This document shows, in pieces, positions 381 to 58,239 of a DNA stretch of 64,000 nucleotides (positions are counted from its first letter, which is position 1; each line of letters starts with the position of its first letter). The DNA lies in assembly GCA_016218545.1 (NCBI GenBank), contig JACRDQ010000030.1, positions 256,172-320,171 on the forward strand, given 5' to 3'. Under the pieces are notes generated by a model. That model ran no database searches and was not told the DNA's origin. It saw nothing but the letters and a program-made list of their open reading frames with translations. The DNA is from Elusimicrobiota bacterium. GTDB taxonomy: Bacteria > Elusimicrobiota > Elusimicrobia > UBA1565 > UBA9628. The translations under genes were made by a program, and so were the position numbers.

Positions 381-1321
381 TCGGCATCGGCAAAGGCAGG
401 CCTCGCAAGCTCGTGTGTCCTGAATCGCTCGAAGGGGTGAGGCTGGACGAATTCCTGGCCAAGGAGCTGGGCGTGAGCCGCTCCCTGGCCAAGCGCCTCG
501 TGGAGGAGGGCCTCGCGACCGTGGACGGCGGCGTCCGGGCGGCCGACCTGCGCCTGCGGCCGGGCCAGGCCGTGGTCCTGTCCGCCAGGCCCGAGCCTCC
601 GCCCGCCTTCGGCCTGGAGGGGCGCGTGCTCCACGAGGACCGCGAGCTCCTCGTCTTGGACAAGCCCGCAGGCCTGCTCATGCATCCGCTGGGCACCACG
701 TGGCTCACCGATCCCATGGCGGCCCGCTGGGAGCCGGACCAGAACCTGGCAGGGCTCCTGCAGGTCCTGCGTCCCGGCATCGTGAAGGCCCGAGTCCCGC
801 GCTGCGGCATCGTCCATCGTCTCGACCGGCAGACCAGCGGCGTCCTGCTCGTGGCCAAGACGCCCGCCGCGTACGAACGTCTGACCGGGGCCTTCAAGGA
901 CCGGCAGATCTCCAAGGTCTACCGGGCCATCGTTCTGGGCGTTCCCACGGACCGGTCGACCTCGGTGGACGCGCCCGTGGGCCGCCCTCCTGGCAGGAGG
1001 ATGGTCAGGGTGACGCCTCTGGGCAAGACCTCCGTGACGCGCGTCCGGGTGGTGTCCTCCTGCGCGTCCGCGGCCCTCATCGAGGCCCGGCCCTTGACCG
1101 GAAGGACGCACCAGATCAGGGCCCACCTGACGCACCTCGGCCATCCCGTGCTCGGCGACCCCGAGGCCCAGTTCCCGGCCGGCTTTCCGAAGCCTCCGCG
1201 CCTGATGCTGCACGCCTGGCGCGTGGAGCTGGTCCATCCCTCCACCGGCCGCAAGGCGGCTTACGAGGCGCCGGTGCCCGCTGACTTCACCTCGTTCTGG
1301 GCGCGCCTGCGGAAGGGATAG
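377..1321 (+). CDS. rluD: RluA-family rRNA pseudouridine synthase (RluD-like)
   Basis: S4-like N-terminus (LDEFLAKELGVSRSLAKRLVEEG), catalytic-Asp motif HRLDRQTSGVLLVAKT and C-terminal GRTHQIRAH. I placed the start at ATG 377 (MIGIGKG), not at the in-frame upstream extension of track ORF 281..1321. Confidence 0.85.
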   Translation: MIGIGKGRPRKLVCPESLEGVRLDEFLAKELGVSRSLAKRLVEEGLATVDGGVRAADLRLRPGQAVVLSARPEPPPAFGLEGRVLHEDRELLVLDKPAGLLMHPLGTTWLTDPMAARWEPDQNLAGLLQVLRPGIVKARVPRCGIVHRLDRQTSGVLLVAKTPAAYERLTGAFKDRQISKVYRAIVLGVPTDRSTSVDAPVGRPPGRRMVRVTPLGKTSVTRVRVVSSCASAALIEARPLTGRTHQIRAHLTHLGHPVLGDPEAQFPAGFPKPPRLMLHAWRVELVHPSTGRKAAYEAPVPADFTSFWARLRKG

Positions 1322-2768
1322 CGAAGACCGAGGCGCCTTCCGCGTCGTCGCGGAAGACCGGGGCTCCCAGGCTGGACTCAGCCCAGGCCCCGATGAGGGC
1401 TCCCATGTCCCTTGCCCCGGCCGGCACGAAGCCTCCGGGCAGGAAGGAGTGCTCCACGTGGATATGGGTGACTCCAGCCTGGCGCGAGGTCTCGACCCAT
1501 TCCCGCGGTCCGGAAGAGCCGAGCGGCGGGGGGAGGCACTGTCGTCCGGTCAGGAGCATCACCGTGTTGAACTTGAGGCTTTCGACGACCGCGTCCGGAG
1601 GGCTGTTGAGGCGGACCCACTCCATGGTCCGGGCCTGATAGGAGGCCGGCCTGGTCAGGGACGCTGACACCAGCCTTGCGTCCTGCCGGAGCGCGGCCAG
1701 GGCCAGGAGTGCCAGCGCGGCCCGGCCCAACCAGGCCTGTGCCGGCCGGTCCGAGGGGGAGAGGGACCCGATCGCGGAGGCCGCGAAGAGCCAGACCAAG
1801 GGCGCGAGGGGGATGACGTAGCGGGAGTCCTCGGGGCTCCAGGTCAAGTGCAGGACCAGGACCAGGACGGTGTAGGCGGCCATGGCGAAGACCAGGGGCG
1901 TCTCCTCCCTGGAGCTCGTCATGAGGCGCCCTGCGCCCCACGCAGCGCAGCTCGCCAGGGCCAGACCCGCGGCCAAGACCAGCCAGCCCGGAGCCTGGGC
2001 GCCGGCCAGCCCGTCTCCGAAGAAGGAGGCGATGACGGCCAGGGCGTGGCTTCCCTGCGCCCCGGGTTCGCCGAGCAGGGCGACTTGGCTGCGCCAGTTC
2101 ACGGCGTATCCGGTCGAGACCCCGGCCGCGAGCTTGTTGCGCAGGAGCCAGAGGCCAAGGGGCGCCAGGCTCGAGAGGAGGAACGCGCCCTGGCGCCTGC
2201 GGCCGGGAGTGGCGAGGGCTCCTGCGGCCAGGGCCAGGCACAGGAGGCCGCCGTGCGGACGGATGAGACCCGCCCAAGCAGCCGCGGCCCACGCGCAGCC
2301 GGTCAGGGCCCAGGAGCCGGACCGGGTCCCCAGGTCCAGGGCCATGAGCGTCAAGGCCAGGTAGGGGATGTCCGGGAGCACGAGCCCGGAGTGGCGCACG
2401 AAGACGGGAGAGAGCGCGGTCAGGCCGGCCGCTGCCAGGGGCCACGGGGCCGGCAGGAGCCTCCAGCCCAGCCGCCAGGTGAAGAAGACGGCCAGGACCA
2501 TGGCGGCCAGCGGCACGCCGCGCAGGAGGCCCCACCGCGGCTCCGCCAGCCAGACCGGGCCCAGGAGCAGCGCCGCGTAGCCTGGCAGCGGGTCGCTGAC
2601 GGGCACGCCCTGGGCGTCGGGAAGGGCGAAGCCTCCGTGCCGCAGGGAGCGGGCGAGCAGGACCTGGACCGAGTCGTCCTCGATGAGCCCCACGGGGTTG
2701 CCTTTCGAGGCCGCGAGATGAAGGCAGAGCAGCGCGGCTGCGGCCGGCAGGATGAGGCGCGTTCTCAC
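1287..2768 (-). CDS. Polytopic membrane protein, putative GT-C-fold glycosyltransferase (ArnT/PMT-like); tandem paralog of 2765..4393
   Basis: Many hydrophobic segments. The N-terminal loop GLIEDDSVQVLLARSLRHGGFALPD...DPLPGYAALLL is collinear with GAFNDDAFFILLSKSLRTGAFALAD...DPLPGFAALLL of the upstream gene, and there is a soluble C-terminal tail. Start placed at GTG 2768 (GTGA overlap with the upstream stop); ATG 2798 is the alternative. Confidence 0.55.
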   Translation of the reverse strand: MRTRLILPAAAALLCLHLAASKGNPVGLIEDDSVQVLLARSLRHGGFALPDAQGVPVSDPLPGYAALLLGPVWLAEPRWGLLRGVPLAAMVLAVFFTWRLGWRLLPAPWPLAAAGLTALSPVFVRHSGLVLPDIPYLALTLMALDLGTRSGSWALTGCAWAAAAWAGLIRPHGGLLCLALAAGALATPGRRRQGAFLLSSLAPLGLWLLRNKLAAGVSTGYAVNWRSQVALLGEPGAQGSHALAVIASFFGDGLAGAQAPGWLVLAAGLALASCAAWGAGRLMTSSREETPLVFAMAAYTVLVLVLHLTWSPEDSRYVIPLAPLVWLFAASAIGSLSPSDRPAQAWLGRAALALLALAALRQDARLVSASLTRPASYQARTMEWVRLNSPPDAVVESLKFNTVMLLTGRQCLPPPLGSSGPREWVETSRQAGVTHIHVEHSFLPGGFVPAGARDMGALIGAWAESSLGAPVFRDDAEGASVFAIPSAGAPRTR

Positions 2769-4393
2769 GGCCCGGGCTCCTCTGCGGAAAGCGCGCACGC
2801 CAGGCTCGGCTCGAGCTCGAGCGCGGCCTTGAGCCTGCGGCGGAGGATCTTGGACGACGCGCCTGAGGCGGGGTCGCGGGCATGGAGGCAGGCCGTGTAG
2901 GCCTCGAAGTAGCGGCCGGGAGCCGGGTGGTGGATGCGGAACACGGCCGTGCCTTCCCTCGGGTTCGCATAGAGCTCGGAGGCATAGGGCGTCTGGCGAG
3001 CCCAGGACTCCAGGGTGGGGAGCTTGAGGTACGGCAGTGAAGGGTAGGCGAACTCTCCGGACAGAAGGCCCCTGGAGACATGCAGGTGGGTGACCCCGCG
3101 CGCCAGGGCGGAGGCGAGCCAGGCGTGCCGGTCGTAGACGGTCAAACCCGGCGGGACCGTGCGCCGTCCCGTGAAGAGCTCCACGGTGTGGAAGGCCAGG
3201 CTCTCCACGCGCGCTTCAGCCGGGAGGTTCTCGGCCAGCCAGGCCATGGTCTCCGGCTCGAAGGCCGGCCGCGGGCCCAGCCCCCTAGCCGCAAAGCCCA
3301 GGTCATGGCGCAGGAGGGCTGCGGAGAAGGCCAGCAGCAGGAGGCCGGCGGCCAGGGGTCTGCGCTCCAGCCAGATCCTCAGTGAGGCCATGATGAGGAT
3401 GACGACGAACGGGAGCAGGGCGATGAGATACCTGGCCTCCTTCAGGGGCCAGGTGGAGTGCATGGCGAGCACGAAGATGACGTAGGTCGCCATGGCCGCG
3501 GCCGGGACGCCTTCGCTGCCCCGCGCCAGGCGCACCGAGCCGTGAGCGACGAGGGCCAGGCATCCCAGCCCGGCCGCGGCGCTCAGGGCCTCCGGGCCCG
3601 TGACCCCGGCCAGGCCCTGGCCGAAGAGCGCGCCCAGGAGCCCAAGGACATGTCCGGCCTGCTGGAGCGGGTCGGCGAACAGGAAGGACTGGGACTTCCA
3701 GTTCGCGACGAAGCCGGTGACCGTGTCTCCTGCGAGGAGGTTGCGGAGCATCCAGCCCGCCAGGGGGAGGAAGGCTCCGGCCAGGAAGGCAAGTCCGCGG
3801 CCCCACCCCAGCCTCAGCCACACGGCCATGCCCAGGCTCAGGCCGAGGATGCTGCCCTGGGGCCTGGTCAGGCACCCTAGAGCGGCGGCCAAGGACAGGG
3901 CCGGCAGGGCCCAAGCAGGACTTCCGGGAGCCAGGGCCGCGGCTCCGAGGAAGAGGGCCAGGGACAGGGCGAGATAGGGGATGTCCGCGATCACGAGCCC
4001 GTCGAGGCCCACCAGCACGGGGTTGAGGGCCACGACTAGGGCCGCGGCCAGGGCCCAGCCCGGGGAGAGGAAGCGCAAGGCCAGGCGCCAGGTCAGCCAG
4101 ACCGAGAGCAGGGCGAAGGCGACGATCATGGGCTGGAGCAGGTGCCAGCGAGGCTCGACCAGCCAGGACGGGATGAGGAGCAGGGCCGCAAACCCCGGCA
4201 GGGGATCGGTCACGGCGGCGCCGTCCGCCAAGGCGAAGGCGCCGGTCCTCAGGGACTTGGAGAGGAGGATGAAGAAGGCGTCGTCGTTGAACGCTCCCAC
4301 GGCGAAGCGCCGGGCCGCGAGCAGGTGGAGGCCTGCCAGGGCCAGGCAGGCAGGCGCCAAGAGCCATGCCATGGGGAACGCTCGTCTCTTCAT
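2765..4393 (-). CDS. Polytopic membrane protein, putative GT-C-fold glycosyltransferase (ArnT/PMT-like)
   Basis: 542-aa ORF with high GC3, many TM segments and a DD-containing first loop. Its soluble C-terminal domain (ETMAWLAENLPAEARVESLAFHTVELFTGRR...) is paralogous to the one in 1287..2768. Confidence 0.55.
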   Translation of the reverse strand: MKRRAFPMAWLLAPACLALAGLHLLAARRFAVGAFNDDAFFILLSKSLRTGAFALADGAAVTDPLPGFAALLLIPSWLVEPRWHLLQPMIVAFALLSVWLTWRLALRFLSPGWALAAALVVALNPVLVGLDGLVIADIPYLALSLALFLGAAALAPGSPAWALPALSLAAALGCLTRPQGSILGLSLGMAVWLRLGWGRGLAFLAGAFLPLAGWMLRNLLAGDTVTGFVANWKSQSFLFADPLQQAGHVLGLLGALFGQGLAGVTGPEALSAAAGLGCLALVAHGSVRLARGSEGVPAAAMATYVIFVLAMHSTWPLKEARYLIALLPFVVILIMASLRIWLERRPLAAGLLLLAFSAALLRHDLGFAARGLGPRPAFEPETMAWLAENLPAEARVESLAFHTVELFTGRRTVPPGLTVYDRHAWLASALARGVTHLHVSRGLLSGEFAYPSLPYLKLPTLESWARQTPYASELYANPREGTAVFRIHHPAPGRYFEAYTACLHARDPASGASSKILRRRLKAALELEPSLACALSAEEPGP

Positions 4394-54826: not shown

Positions 54827-56104
54827 ATGCGCGCGCTCCTGCTCTGCCTTGCCGGCTTCCTGGCCGGACCTGCCCTGGCCGCCGAGTGGCCGCCCGAGGT
54901 CCCGGAGTGGGCCAGGCTGCGCGTGACGGCGCCCAAGGCCGCGGGCTCCGAGTGTCCGCCCGGCTCGCCGCGCCGCAGGCCGGTCCGGACCCTGTCCGAG
55001 GAGCCCTCCTTCGAGGTCAAGGAGCTCAAGCCCTGGGCCGAGGTGCCCCTGCCCCAAGACGACCTGGCCGCGTCCTCGGCGGTGGAGGCGGCGGAGAAGA
55101 CCCGCGCCTACTGGGCCGCCAGGCCCGGAGACGAGAAGGTCGCAGTGGGAGGCCTGACCTACACCGCGGCGCACATGGTCCGGAGCTTCTCTGCCCTGGC
55201 CGCGCTGCTCTCCCAGGGCCTGCCGGCCAAGGAGCTCAAGGCGCGGCTCGAGCGGGACTTCGACGTGTACCAGGCGGTCAAACCCGACGGCGGCCTCTCA
55301 GGCACCATGACCGCGTACTACGACCCGGAGATCCCCGTCTCAGGCGTGGGCCAGGCCGGCGTGCCCATCCACGCCAGGCCCGCGGACCTCGTCCGGGTGG
55401 ACCCTGCCTCGGGCCTGTCCTTCGACTGGGGCAGGCCCGACGGTCACGGCGGGCTCGCGCCTCACGCCTCGCGCAGGGAGGTCGACGCGGGCGCGCTCGC
55501 GGGCCAGGGGCTGGAGCTCTACTCCACGAGGCACCCGACCGACCTCCTCAACCTCCAGACCGAGGGCTCGGGCTGGGGCGTGCTCCCGGGCGGCCGCAGG
55601 GTCCGCCTGGCCTTCAACGGCGCCAACGGCCACGTGTTCAAGTCCGTGGGCAAGACCCTCATCGACTGCGGCCTCCTCCCGGCCGGCACCGGCTCCTTCG
55701 CCATCCTCGACTATCTCAAGTCCCAGACCCTCGAGCGGGAGCTGGAGCTCGTGGGCTTCAACCCGCGCTACGTCTACTTCAAGGAGGTCGCCTCGACCGG
55801 CGGGCCATGGGGCGCCACCGGAGTCGAGCTCGTGGCCGGCCGCTCCGTGGCCTCGGACCCCAAGCAGGTGCGCCTCGGCCTGGCCGGCATCCTCGTGTCC
55901 CGCAAGCCGGTCGCGGCCGAGGACGGGACCTTCCAGGGCTTCTCGGACTTCACGCGCTTCGTCTTCACCCACGACGTGGGCTCCGCCATCCGGGGCCCGG
56001 TCCGGCTCGACGTGTTCTGGGGCCGCGGGGCCAAGGCCGAGTCCGAGGCGCACCGCATGCTGTTCCCGGGCAAGCTCACCATCATCGTCCTCAAGCAGCG
56101 CTAG
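54827..56104 (+). CDS. mltA: Membrane-bound lytic murein transglycosylase A-like
   Basis: Signal peptide, an MltA-specific insert region, and a C-terminal 3D-domain-like motif FVFTHDVGSAIRGPVRLDVFWGRG. Confidence 0.7.
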   Translation: MRALLLCLAGFLAGPALAAEWPPEVPEWARLRVTAPKAAGSECPPGSPRRRPVRTLSEEPSFEVKELKPWAEVPLPQDDLAASSAVEAAEKTRAYWAARPGDEKVAVGGLTYTAAHMVRSFSALAALLSQGLPAKELKARLERDFDVYQAVKPDGGLSGTMTAYYDPEIPVSGVGQAGVPIHARPADLVRVDPASGLSFDWGRPDGHGGLAPHASRREVDAGALAGQGLELYSTRHPTDLLNLQTEGSGWGVLPGGRRVRLAFNGANGHVFKSVGKTLIDCGLLPAGTGSFAILDYLKSQTLERELELVGFNPRYVYFKEVASTGGPWGATGVELVAGRSVASDPKQVRLGLAGILVSRKPVAAEDGTFQGFSDFTRFVFTHDVGSAIRGPVRLDVFWGRGAKAESEAHRMLFPGKLTIIVLKQR

Positions 56105-56267
56105 CCTGGAATCCCCAGTTGGACGCGGGATTCGACGAAGGCTGCCGGGACATTTCTATGCAAAATCTCGCGACCGTAGCTACGGCTACGCTCGCGAGAT
56201 TTTGCGTCGACCTGTCCTCGGCATCCTTCGTCTCGGTCCACGCGCCAACTGGGGATTCCAGGCTAGC
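56100..56267. repeat. 168-bp nested inverted-repeat element (MITE-like or long structured hairpin) between convergent genes
   Basis: Perfect 23-nt terminal inverted repeats: GCTAGCCTGGAATCCCCAGTTGG (56100-56122) and its reverse complement (56245-56267). The arms pair imperfectly in between. An inner perfect 14-bp stem GCAAAATCTCGCGA (56160-56173 / 56192-56205) encloses a loop containing the palindrome CCGTAGCTACGG. GC content is locally lower. Confidence 0.75.
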
Positions 56268-56307
56268 CGAGGAGCGGCTCTTCACAAGAAGAGTCTGTGG
56301 ATAACTC

Positions 56308-56955
56308 CTAGGGCTGCTGCGGAGCGGGCACGGGCGCGGAGACCTTGCGCAGGATCTCGTCGGCCTCGCGGTGGCTGTCGCGGATGTCGCGCTCGACGTC
56401 CGCGGAGTACCGGGAGATGTCCCAGGCCTCCATGGAGAAGCCCGCGCGGCGGATGTCCCACTCGGCCCAGCGGGCCTCGCTGGCCAGCCAGCCGATCTCG
56501 CTCTCGGTCCAGGTGAAGGAGTCCGTGAAGCGGCGGGCCGATTGGATCTGCCCCGGATCGGGGCGGGCCTGCATGGCGAGGCGTTCTGCGTCCATGCGCA
56601 CGCGCTGGACCGCCCACTGCAGGTCCCGGAGGGCCCACACCGCGCGGTTGAGGTCGTTGCGGAAGAAGGGGTCGTTGTTCGGCTGGCCCGGCTGGATGCG
56701 CTGGGCGCGGCGGCGCAGGTCCTGCAGGTCGGACTTCAGGCGCTGGGCCGTCCACTGGAAGCCGCGCACGTCGGAGGCGAGGCGGTCGAGGTCATAGGCG
56801 GCCTGGAGGTTCTTCGCCTCGATGCGTTCGGCCTTGGCGGCGAGGATGTTCGCGCGCAGTCCGGTCAAGGCGGCCTCGAAGCCCGGCAGGGCCGGGACCA
56901 CGGCGGCATGGGCCGAGCAGGTCAGGGATACGAGCAGGGTAGCGACGAGCATCAT
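56308..56955 (-). CDS. Secreted Trp/Arg-rich helical hypothetical protein
   Basis: Signal peptide MMLVATLLVSLTCSAHA. Recurring W-containing helices (FQWTAQRLKSDL, VWALRDLQWAVQRV, GWLASEARWAEWDI). AAGGAGGA SD. The start overlaps the stop of the upstream REC-HK gene (ATGA). Confidence 0.6.
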   Translation of the reverse strand: MMLVATLLVSLTCSAHAAVVPALPGFEAALTGLRANILAAKAERIEAKNLQAAYDLDRLASDVRGFQWTAQRLKSDLQDLRRRAQRIQPGQPNNDPFFRNDLNRAVWALRDLQWAVQRVRMDAERLAMQARPDPGQIQSARRFTDSFTWTESEIGWLASEARWAEWDIRRAGFSMEAWDISRYSADVERDIRDSHREADEILRKVSAPVPAPQQP

Positions 56956-58145
56956 GGACGTCCTCCTTGGGGTAGGGCCGAGGGGCCCTCGGGGTCGGGC
57001 TGACGCGGAGCGGCCGGGACGGCCGCCGCCAGAGGGATCGTGAAGGAGAAGGTAGCACCCGCCCCGGGATGGGACTCCGCCCAGATGCGGCCGCCGTGCA
57101 GCTCGACGAGCGAGCGGCAGATGTTGAGGCCCAAGCCGAGGCCCTTGTTCTGCTGCCGGTCGGCGTCCTCCTGATAGAAGCGGTCGAAGACGTGCGGCAG
57201 GCCCTCGGGAGAGATGCCCTTTCCCGTGTCGCGCACCTGGAAGCGCGCGAAGGCGCCCTCGCGGCACAGCGAGATGGTCACCGAGCCGCCTTCGGGGGTG
57301 AACTTCATGGCGTTGCCCACGAGGTTGGCGAGGATCTGGTGGAGGCGGCCGTCGTCGGCCCGCACGGTCAGGCCTTCCCCGGCCCGGGCGTCGAGCTGCA
57401 GCTCGATGCCGCGGCGGCCGGCCTCGAGCTTGGAGTTCTCGAAGGCGTCGCGGACCGCGCGGGCCGCGGAGAGCTCGCCGCGGTCGAGCTCGACCTTGTG
57501 CTGCGCCAGCCGGGTGGACTCGAGGAGCTCCTCGAGGAGCACGGAGAGCCGCTCCGCGTTCCTGTTGATGGACTCGAGGTTGCGGCGGAGCTCCGCGGGG
57601 TTCTGGTCCTCGGCCTTCTGCCTCAGGAGGAAGGTGCTGTAGCCGTAGACCACGGTGAGGGGGTTCTTGAGCTCGTGCGAGGCGTCCTGGATGAGCTGGG
57701 TCTTGGCCTCGAGCTGGCGCTGGACCTTCTCGAGCATGGAGGTCTTCTGCAGCAGGGCCTTGTTGAGGCGGAAGTGCTCCATGCCGCGGCGGACGGCGGC
57801 GAGCATGGCCTCGGTGTGCACGGGTTTGTTGATGTAGTCGTAGACGCCCTCGCGCAGGGCCTCCATCGCGGAGTCCACCGAGCCGTGGGCCGTGACGATG
57901 AGGCCCACGGTCGTGGGGTCGGCCTTGCGCGCGGCCGCGAGCACGTCGAGGCCCGACATGTCCGGGAGGCGCAGGTCCGCGAGGACCATGCACAGGCGCG
58001 ATTGGGCGATGAGGCGGCAGGCCGCGGTCCCCGTCGAGGCGGAGAGGAGCTCGCAGCCTAGGGGCTTCAAGGCGGCGCGGAGGTACTTGAGGAACTCCTC
58101 ATCGTCGTCGACGATGAGCAGGGTCTCGGCTGAGTCGGCGTTCAT
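56952..58145 (-). CDS. Hybrid response regulator-histidine kinase (REC + HisKA + HATPase_c, no TM or sensor domain)
   Basis: REC domain: LLIVDDDEEFL...MVLADLRLPDMSG...LIVTAHG...DYINKP. H-box DASHELKNPLTVV, N-box LANLVGNAMKFT, G-boxes VRDTGKGI and GLGLGLNICR. Start at ATG 58145 (MNADSAE). Confidence 0.85.
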   Translation of the reverse strand: MNADSAETLLIVDDDEEFLKYLRAALKPLGCELLSASTGTAACRLIAQSRLCMVLADLRLPDMSGLDVLAAARKADPTTVGLIVTAHGSVDSAMEALREGVYDYINKPVHTEAMLAAVRRGMEHFRLNKALLQKTSMLEKVQRQLEAKTQLIQDASHELKNPLTVVYGYSTFLLRQKAEDQNPAELRRNLESINRNAERLSVLLEELLESTRLAQHKVELDRGELSAARAVRDAFENSKLEAGRRGIELQLDARAGEGLTVRADDGRLHQILANLVGNAMKFTPEGGSVTISLCREGAFARFQVRDTGKGISPEGLPHVFDRFYQEDADRQQNKGLGLGLNICRSLVELHGGRIWAESHPGAGATFSFTIPLAAAVPAAPRQPDPEGPSALPQGGRP

Positions 58146-58160
58146 CTTCAGCAGTAGTGT

Positions 58161-58222
58161 GGGTCCCCTGACCCTCCCGCGACAGGGCCCATGGGCCCAG
58201 GAGCGGGTGGGACTTTGGTCCC
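58161..58222 (-). promoter_or_regulatory. Three 14-nt palindromes GGGNC-N4-GNCCC phased at exactly 24 nt in the 5' UTR/operator region of the REC-HK gene
   Basis: GGGTCCCCTGACCC at 58161-58174, GGGCCCATGGGCCC at 58185-58198 and GGGACTTTGGTCCC at 58209-58222. Each can form a 5-bp stem with a 4-nt loop or act as a dyad-symmetric protein site. Confidence 0.5.
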
Positions 58223-58230
58223 AGGACCCC

Positions 58231-58239
58231 ATCTTACCA
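58231..58239 (-). promoter_or_regulatory. Candidate extended -10 (TGGTAAGAT on minus strand) for the REC-HK operon
   Basis: The minus strand reads gggataTGGTAAGATggggtcc. The predicted TSS lies just upstream of the first palindrome, giving a 5' UTR of about 80 nt. Confidence 0.35.

Follow-up and report, generated by a model that had tools for sequence, protein, structure and literature searches.

A palindrome of 168 nt separates two convergent genes, mltA and a gene for a protein of ~216 aa, in a stretch of 64,000 nt (the window) from an Elusimicrobiota bacterium (contig JACRDQ010000030.1 of assembly GCA_016218545.1). With a probability that we put at roughly 0.68, this palindrome is one copy of an IS1380-like, non-coding MITE (a miniature transposable element with inverted repeats), which now stands as the sole strong hairpin between the two genes. 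The element belongs to a family in which terminal inverted repeats of ~20 bp enclose interchangeable interiors and which is found in several bacterial phyla. The family spans Elusimicrobia, Gamma- and Zetaproteobacteria, is described neither in Rfam, PLSDB nor the searched literature, and is best classed as a new family of a known kind, that of MITEs, with a probable relation to IS1380. As expected of a MITE, the element is short (less than ~300 bp), non-coding and bounded by terminal inverted repeats. On this reading it should be annotated as a repeat element and not as a gene or a riboswitch-like RNA. The reading also explains the position of the mltA stop codon inside the palindrome.

An initial annotation of the window had described a 168-bp element with perfect 23-bp inverted termini, imperfect arms and a 14-bp central stem, and all these sequence statements hold. 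The termini are GCTAGCCTGGAATCCCCAGTTGG at 56100-56122 and its exact reverse complement at 56245-56267. The arms pair imperfectly with few bulges (GACGAAGGCTGCCG with CGGCATCCTTCGTC, 14 nt, 93%), and the central perfect 14-bp stem (56160-56173 / 56192-56205) is part of a 33-nt arm pair at 85% that closes on an 18-nt tip (56174-56191) including CCGTAGCTACGG. The unit common to family members elsewhere is the 158-bp core, CCTGG...CCAGG. Its repeats are 20 nt long, 18 of them perfect; the right repeat departs from the left at positions 19-20 alone, where the homologue L051 has the same CGCG version. The outer GCTAG/CTAGC is flank, made up of CTAG on each side plus one extra base that pairs by happenstance. 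The RNA fold prediction that the initial annotation had called for yields a single long hairpin from either strand, with a minimum free energy of -136.5 kcal/mol for the plus and -135.3 kcal/mol for the minus strand, against about -65 kcal/mol for shuffles (z = -18 and -15). The 23-mer occurs at these two places only in the 64 kb, even with three mismatches (shuffles expect 0), which together with the z-scores puts the pairing far above chance. No second long hairpin of comparable kind was found in the window. The local drop in GC content noted earlier is also real, with 0.57-0.58 across the palindrome and ~0.70-0.75 in the flanks (core 0.60 compared to 0.71). Six-frame peptides of the element, compared with 5.8 billion proteins to catch copies mis-called as open reading frames, gave no match.

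We queried one genome per species from 185,579 species with an exact 18-mer (CCTGGAATCCCCAGTTGG), which returned 41 loci, and scanned three further collections, a JGI metagenome set, IMG/VR and PLSDB, with the terminus. In four species genomes the 18-mer forms the left end of a short element that closes on the right with the inverted copy. Non-coding elements of 109-239 bp with the family termini (first ~18-20 nt, CCTRGAATCCCCAGTTGGAC) occupy unrelated intergenic sites; they come from Cellvibrionales, Zetaproteobacteria, Sedimenticola, one further gammaproteobacterium and several metagenomes. Across genomes, 10 or more elements are spread over no fewer than 8 contigs and organisms (Table 1). 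The interiors of L016, L019, L021, L025, L088, L096, L042 and L061 are unrelated to that of the window element, and the left and right ends of this group differ slightly and consistently (GTTGGAC vs GTTGACC). All complete copies fold with their two ends paired (z = -2.6 to -16), and their GC content stays at 0.44-0.60 regardless of a host flank GC of 0.36-0.71. Copies lie 2-12 nt from stop or start codons of ordinary housekeeping genes, in both orientations relative to these neighbors. Four contigs (L042, L048, L052 and L061) end inside a copy, as expected where assemblies break at repeats. The initial annotation had made a MITE depend on related sequences elsewhere; since these exist, in L051, L048 and at least eight further elements in other phyla, its case for rejecting a MITE as a single copy without relatives falls away. 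The majority of the exact 18-mer matches are not elements, being either chance matches or a conserved Acidobacteriota coding motif, GCAGGGCCTGGAATCCCCAGTTGGTCTGCTTGATCATGCC, which accounts for L001, L009, L017, L020, L023, L027, L030, L032, L033, L036 and many of L046-L095. Searched with the terminus, PLSDB gave no match of at least 18 nt and IMG/VR a single match, within a phage tail-fibre-like coding region; a literature search for the string returned only unrelated adeno-associated virus and plant primers.

The 158-bp element of L051, from Hainich groundwater, aligns over its full length to the minus strand of the window element. The outer ~35 nt on each side are conserved, including the identical asymmetric loop GGATTCGACG / CGTCTCGGTCC. 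The inner stems are GC-rich in the window and A/T-rich in L051, whose host has 50-60% GC, and they still pair: both partners differ in 12 of the 54 predicted pairs, and no pair is lost. L048, from another Hainich well, is a second L051-type copy; it has a different flank and adjoins a tRNA gene. In a second subfamily, type B (L096, L025b and L042), 17 of 46 pairs are compensatory. The shared asymmetric loop and the co-varying stems argue for descent from one ancestor with a maintained fold, and against independent fold-back accidents. The same homologue bears on the idea that metagenome assembly produced a chimeric inverted duplication. The source is a metagenome-assembled genome (MAG), but the palindrome is imperfect, its bulges are conserved in L051, which was assembled independently and comes from a different site, and it lies in the middle of the 64-kb window with intact genes on both sides, which makes an artefact the least credible of the explanations considered here.

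Two further observations concern the L051 type. The L051 contig carries, ~80 nt from the hairpin element, an insertion sequence (IS) of the ISLre2 family (L051:1481-3478), whose 496-aa transposase matches Pfam UPF0236. We rejected this transposase as the parent because the IS has its own imperfect 30-nt inverted repeats (1481-1510 / 3449-3478), which are unrelated to the element ends. In the window, L051 and L048, the conserved subterminal block reads (C/T)(G/T)GGATTCGACG, and its complement resembles a tRNA T-arm (TCGAATCCCGC). The string GGATTCGACG also occurs in E. coli tmRNA, in its tRNA-like 5' part (CUGGAUUCGACGGG). These likenesses are probably a coincidence, and ARAGORN finds no tRNA or tmRNA on the element.

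From the pattern of substitutions, the stem co-variation suggests that selection acts on the fold itself, be it for mobility or for a role at the RNA level, and hints that insertions are kept for their structure. A bolder and rather doubtful extension is that of a cross-phylum hairpin family in which the fold, and not just the ends, is selected, and which would be the first MITE family tied to IS1380/piggyBac-like transposases. If this were true, such enzymes may require the complete element to fold as an intermediate; alternatively, hosts may keep the insertions because they supply transcript ends that work both ways and take the place of native terminators. The pair formed by mltA and the two-component operon would, if selection for structure is confirmed, be a clean case of a mobile hairpin replacing a native bidirectional terminator.

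A fold that serves as the substrate would also explain co-varying stems around one conserved asymmetric loop. The element could then be a folded single-stranded DNA element comparable to REPINs/RAYT, IS200/IS605 ends or integron attC sites, recognised by an HUH/Y1 enzyme or a tyrosine recombinase instead of a DDE transposase. The compensatory changes in both subfamilies (12/54 and 17/46 pairs) and the asymmetric internal loop with its conserved sequence fit this proposal, as do the lack of a consistent target duplication and, in some type-B copies, a strong difference in folding between the strands (-114 vs -79 kcal/mol in L021). We nevertheless consider it unlikely. The termini are conserved in sequence across phyla and form symmetric inverted repeats, which fits double-strand recognition by a transposase, and they resemble IS1380 ends. 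The strand asymmetry is inconsistent across copies, and no RAYT, IS200 or integrase gene adjoins any copy examined. In addition, the polarity of the GTT...AAC motif is opposite to that of attC R''/R'. An attC site (R'' RYYYAAC ... R' GTTRRRY) was rejected since the order here is GTTGGAC...CCAAC, in reverse polarity and 14-20 nt inside the ends; the window holds no integrase or cassette array. A strand-specific analysis of G-U pairs to choose the RNA strand was inconsistent across copies and thus singles out no strand.

We suspected the IS1380 family because its ends begin with CC and it makes 4-5-bp repeats, and compared the ends of ISEcp1, IS1247-like, ISPme1-like and ISSsu5 elements from plasmids and of four more IS1247-group copies from IMG/VR. 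Ends of the IS1247/ISPme1 group read CC-N-R-CATT(C/T)CCCAAGT. The right-end form CCTGCATTCCCCAAGTGGCG shares 14 of 20 tip-anchored positions with the window terminus CCTGGAATCCCCAGTTGGAC, compared to 13-14 for right ends of the group as a whole and 11-12 for ISEcp1 ends; by our own binomial estimate, 14 or more of 20 would arise by chance at roughly 1e-4 per comparison. Eight of the ten IS1247-group ends also carry T-N-A-N just outside the CC (TTAA, TCAA, TTAG, TCAG, TCAT). The element has in common with this group the CC start, 14 of 20 tip positions and the T-N-A-N context. The window copy has a candidate duplication of 4 bp and L021 one of 5 bp, within the 4-5 bp given for the IS1380 family; the other copies and the autonomous IS1247-group copies sampled have no perfect repeats. 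Unlike IS1247, it has no transposase gene, measures 158 bp compared to ~1.67 kb and has a long hairpin as its interior. Four core positions differ consistently between the element and the IS1247/ISPme1 ends, the versions being listed as CATT...AAGT vs GAAT...AGTT. IS1247 itself is 1672 bp long, with inverted repeats of 16/13 and direct repeats of 5 bp (PMC3281130), and IS1380 transposases form an outgroup of piggyBac (PMC10813416). The comparison can be extended with some reserve to the piggyBac transposons, eukaryotic relatives of IS1380, as the element is prokaryotic, its flanks are T-N-A-N and not strictly TTAA, and no copy shows a precise duplication of TTAA. The ends of type-B copies, T(T/C)AA followed by CCTAGAATCC, are similar in layout to piggyBac ends, which read TTAA followed by CCCTAGAA. 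Judged from the ends, the IS1380 connection is a reasoned lead and not proof, and it provides a testable candidate for the mobilising enzyme, an IS1247/ISPme1-like member of the IS1380 family. As a separate observation, the two 4-5-bp flanks of the autonomous IS1247/ISPme1-group copies L103, L104, L106 and L107 are not identical, although direct repeats of 4-5 bp are listed for the family and identity would have been expected; one-ended transposition or a preference for palindromic targets may be behind this.

The window core has CTAG on both sides, consistent with a duplication of 4 bp or, inside a CTAG target, of TA. In the family at large, the tetranucleotides just beyond the ends are T-N-A-N in 22 of 26 termini (CTAG in 3), and perfect direct repeats are present only in the window (CTAG/CTAG) and in L021 (TTGAA/TTGAA). 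A candidate for the target-site duplication that the initial annotation proposed to look for is present in the window, and such duplications are not consistent across the family. The same T-N-A is shared by the two sides of three of the seven type-B copies, about the chance level once T and A are fixed. Targeting of stop codons was rejected, as the flanking T-N-A is not the real stop codon of the neighbor in most copies.

The three nearest MltA homologues (80, 78 and 70% identity) mark syntenic loci in other Elusimicrobia (L097, L098 and L099), with the order mltA, small secreted protein, histidine kinase-response regulator (HK-RR), glycosyltransferase and elongation factor P; the mltA/small-protein/HK-RR order is the same in L097 and L099. 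The element is absent from all three orthologous mltA loci. The L099 spacer of 108 bp contains a GC-rich two-way terminator hairpin, and that of L097 (387 bp, L097:5378-5764) ends in its own textbook terminator, AAAAAAAACCGCCCGCGGGATATCGTCCCGCGGGCGG; the spacers of the three loci cannot be aligned to that of the window. Some 300 bp of the L097 spacer besides the terminator have no assigned feature, and a decayed element copy there was rejected, with an alignment score below the shuffle mean. MltA ends at the same position in all relatives compared (...VLKQR*, ...VLKQP*), and the TAG-CC context is common to the window and L097 (AAG CAG CCG TAG CC in L097). Together these make AAG CAG CGC TAG CCGAGG, obtained by removing the element and one CTAG, a plausible ancestral site, and this reconstructed empty site would plausibly keep the stop where the relatives have theirs. 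The predicted empty site would read ...AAGCAGCGCTAGCCGAGGAGC..., with a clean insertion at GCGCTAGCC.

These loci also speak to the idea of a bidirectional terminator formed in situ, without any history of mobility. The palindrome lies exactly where the relatives have a terminator hairpin and is the only strong one of its spacer. Against such an origin stand the homologous elements at unrelated loci and in other phyla (L051, L048 and the wider family), the non-homologous spacers of the relatives, the missing U-tract and a GC content 10 points below that of the host, and we regard it as highly improbable.

Under the MITE reading, a DDE transposase of the IS1380 family, IS1247/ISPme1-like, would move copies in trans, and its partner IS would be bounded by CCTRGAATCCCCAGTTGG. 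Insertion would have taken place into a CTAG formed by the last sense codon and the TAG stop codon of mltA, with duplication of CTAG or of its central TA, so that the MltA reading frame and stop would be preserved. Both convergent transcripts would then enter the element, and the ~69-pair RNA hairpin may block read-through and 3' exonucleases. The element would in this way act as a two-way 3'-end structure in place of the GC-rich terminator of the relatives. The element is an inserted, foreign-looking palindrome which both convergent transcription units must enter, and any behavior as a terminator or structured RNA is likely a consequence of the insertion and not its origin.

A different account of the same hairpin is that of a structured non-coding RNA gene, or a cis-acting RNA element, that has spread horizontally and whose DNA inverted repeats are only the closing helix. 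The very stable fold with covariation and the position in transcribed 3' regions directly beside coding sequences are what such an RNA would show. The family pattern is the opposite of that of an RNA family, however, with 18-20 closing base pairs that are invariant and interiors that are unrelated, and it includes both orientations, truncated copies, a 28-bp remnant and three copies in 2 kb. No Rfam family reaches its threshold, only generic long-hairpin microRNA models being hit: the best match is a plant microRNA precursor model with 51.7 bits compared to 197 needed, and the 14 related loci give nothing. A 'Transposase-2' match in Rfam on the native spacer (17.5 bits, gathering score 42.7) was treated as chance. 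A pattern scan of 55600-56800 on both strands detected no promoter-like and no terminator-like site. We hold this RNA account to be even less likely than a single-stranded DNA element. With respect to termination, no T-run follows the hairpin; an intrinsic (Rho-independent) terminator combines a GC-rich stem-loop with a U-tract, and without the latter the element is not a canonical one.

Several results weigh against an IS1380-like MITE. The 64-kb window, the part of the source genome that was searched, holds one copy of the element. No autonomous partner recognising the same ends turned up in the collections scanned, and a full-length IS with these exact ends was not found in the 185,579 species genomes, the JGI metagenome set, IMG/VR or PLSDB. 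Near the copies examined there is no transposase except that of the unrelated ISLre2-type IS beside L051, and none was found in the less typical stretches of the window. The likeness to IS1380 ends covers ~20 nt and is no more than partial, at 70%. Flanking duplications are inconsistent, since the two flanks of one copy usually differ and no single length fits all. Co-varying stems are unexpected for a passively decaying MITE of the DDE type. Finally, the hairpin for which we infer a role in termination lacks a U-tract.

Among known bacterial repeats, ERIC/IRU (127 bp) and YPAL/RU-2 (168 bp) resemble the element in being small, non-coding, intergenic, MITE-like and able to form long stable hairpins, and they are co-transcribed with neighboring genes. 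For the ERIC/YPAL group, TA at the ends and a TA duplication have been reported (PMC2759123), and the window copy can also be read as G...C between two TA. The element has no sequence homology to ERIC: the shared string GAATCCCCAG is central in ERIC, whose termini read TATACCCGTCAT.... A reading of GTGAATCCCCAGG as the ERIC terminus was rejected, as the published consensus places it centrally, and a comparison with the 127-bp consensus gave no support for homology. YPAL/RU-2 was rejected for its unrelated termini, its equal length of 168 bp being a coincidence. The initial annotation had suggested a 'MITE or REP-like mobile remnant'. The first part stands, given the related elements and their absence in three relatives, and the likeness to repetitive extragenic palindromic (REP) sequences is not supported, with no 20-40-bp REP unit and no RAYT nearby. 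A long hairpin of two inverted halves is a feature shared with REPINs, the pairing of which, as Bertels and Rainey are said to have noted in 2011, appears to be maintained by selection. In contrast to REPINs, the element does not end in a short REP unit headed by GTAG or CGTC and has no RAYT near any copy, and its termini are conserved across phyla and not lineage-specific. In the Correia/NEMIS, RUP and BOX hairpin MITEs, the inserted palindrome becomes part of an mRNA end, 3' or 5', and can cause transcripts to terminate or make them more stable. By analogy we propose the same consequence for the present element; termini and hosts are unrelated.

Some copies of the wider family have features of their own. 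Locus L025 (L025:1-2034, JBNKKI010000048.1, a Gammaproteobacteria MAG with host DNA of ~36% GC) holds three type-B copies in 2 kb, and this genome looks heavily colonised by the element. Full-length type-B copies carry, beyond the long hairpin, a second conserved module in which GTAGCGG precedes a small hairpin, (A/T)TCACC...GGTGA(A/T), which suggests that their architecture is more complex than two ends plus filler. At L052:1655-1682, a 28-bp mini-palindrome, CCTGGAATCCCCAGTTGGGAATTCCAGG, with TTAA on its flanks resembles the two element ends joined almost directly, and could have arisen by internal deletion or be the footprint of an excision.

Table 1 Coordinates of the palindrome and its parts, the neighboring genes and related copies elsewhere (window positions unless a locus is named).
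Feature	Position	Strand	Remarks
Whole palindrome	56100..56267	none	168 nt; core plus palindromic GCTAG/CTAGC flank
Element core, CCTGG...CCAGG	56105..56262	none	158 bp; homologue L051:1241-1398 of equal length
Left terminal inverted repeat CCTGGAATCCCCAGTTGGAC	56105..56124	+	identical 18-20-mer bounds elements in L016, L019, L021, L025, L048, L051, L088, L096
Right terminal inverted repeat CCTGGAATCCCCAGTTGGCG (minus-strand reading)	56243..56262	-	
Left flank CTAG, candidate target-site duplication	56101..56104		4 bp, or TA inside; holds mltA stop TAG
Right flank CTAG, second copy of candidate duplication	56263..56266		
Subterminal block GGATTCGACG	56128..56137	+	one side of asymmetric internal loop; identical in L051 and L048; stems further in diverged
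Subterminal block CGTCTCGGTCC	56229..56239	+	opposite side of asymmetric loop; identical in L051
Inner hairpin	56138..56228		includes perfect 14-bp stem and tip; compared to L051, 12 pairs changed on both sides, 0 broken
mltA (lytic murein transglycosylase A)	54827..56104	+	Pfam MltA and 3D domains
Convergent downstream gene, ~216 aa	56308..56955	-	signal-peptide-like N-terminus; stop 56308-56310; frame fixed by codon-position GC
Native spacer, ~40 bp	56267..56307		only a weak 6-bp hairpin CTCTTC-ACAA-GAAGAG at 56278-56293; no canonical terminator
Related element	L016		Cellvibrionales; 132 bp
Related element	L019		Zetaproteobacteria; 163 bp
Related element	L021 (= L058)		Sedimenticola; 239 bp
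Related elements	L025		gammaproteobacterium; three copies in 2 kb, of 109 bp, 235 bp and one truncated
L025 copy	481-589		internally deleted form between two CTATT repeats
L025 copy	~1207-1340		inverted, truncated
L025 copy	1779-2013		full length
Related element	L088		metagenome scan; 236 bp
Related element	L096		metagenome scan; 155 bp
Partial copies where contigs end	L042, L061, L048		metagenome scan
Lone end	L045		metagenome scan
Remnant	L052		metagenome scan; 28 bp
Second module of type B	L025:1779-2013, L042:5321-5486, L088:3291-3526		

The genes on both sides agree with the convergent arrangement first annotated, the minus-strand gene having its stop at 56308-56310 in a frame fixed by codon-position GC. 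The product of mltA is a 100% match to an MltA-domain protein of an Elusimicrobia MAG, encoded on a 320-kb contig. Its stop codon, TAG at 56102-56104, lies inside the left 23-nt terminus, as the initial annotation had stated, and abuts the core. No Pfam family was found for the ~216-aa product of the convergent gene, which comes last in a histidine kinase/response regulator operon. The preceding gene encodes a hybrid HK/RR (56952-58232) and overlaps it by ATGA (56952-56955); the pair is kept in L097 and L099, and the overlap points to translational coupling of the HK/RR and the small secreted-looking protein. Just upstream of the kinase gene start at 58232 lies a 36-nt imperfect palindrome (58160-58223, 75% complementary, with overlapping arms), which could be an operator or an attenuator.

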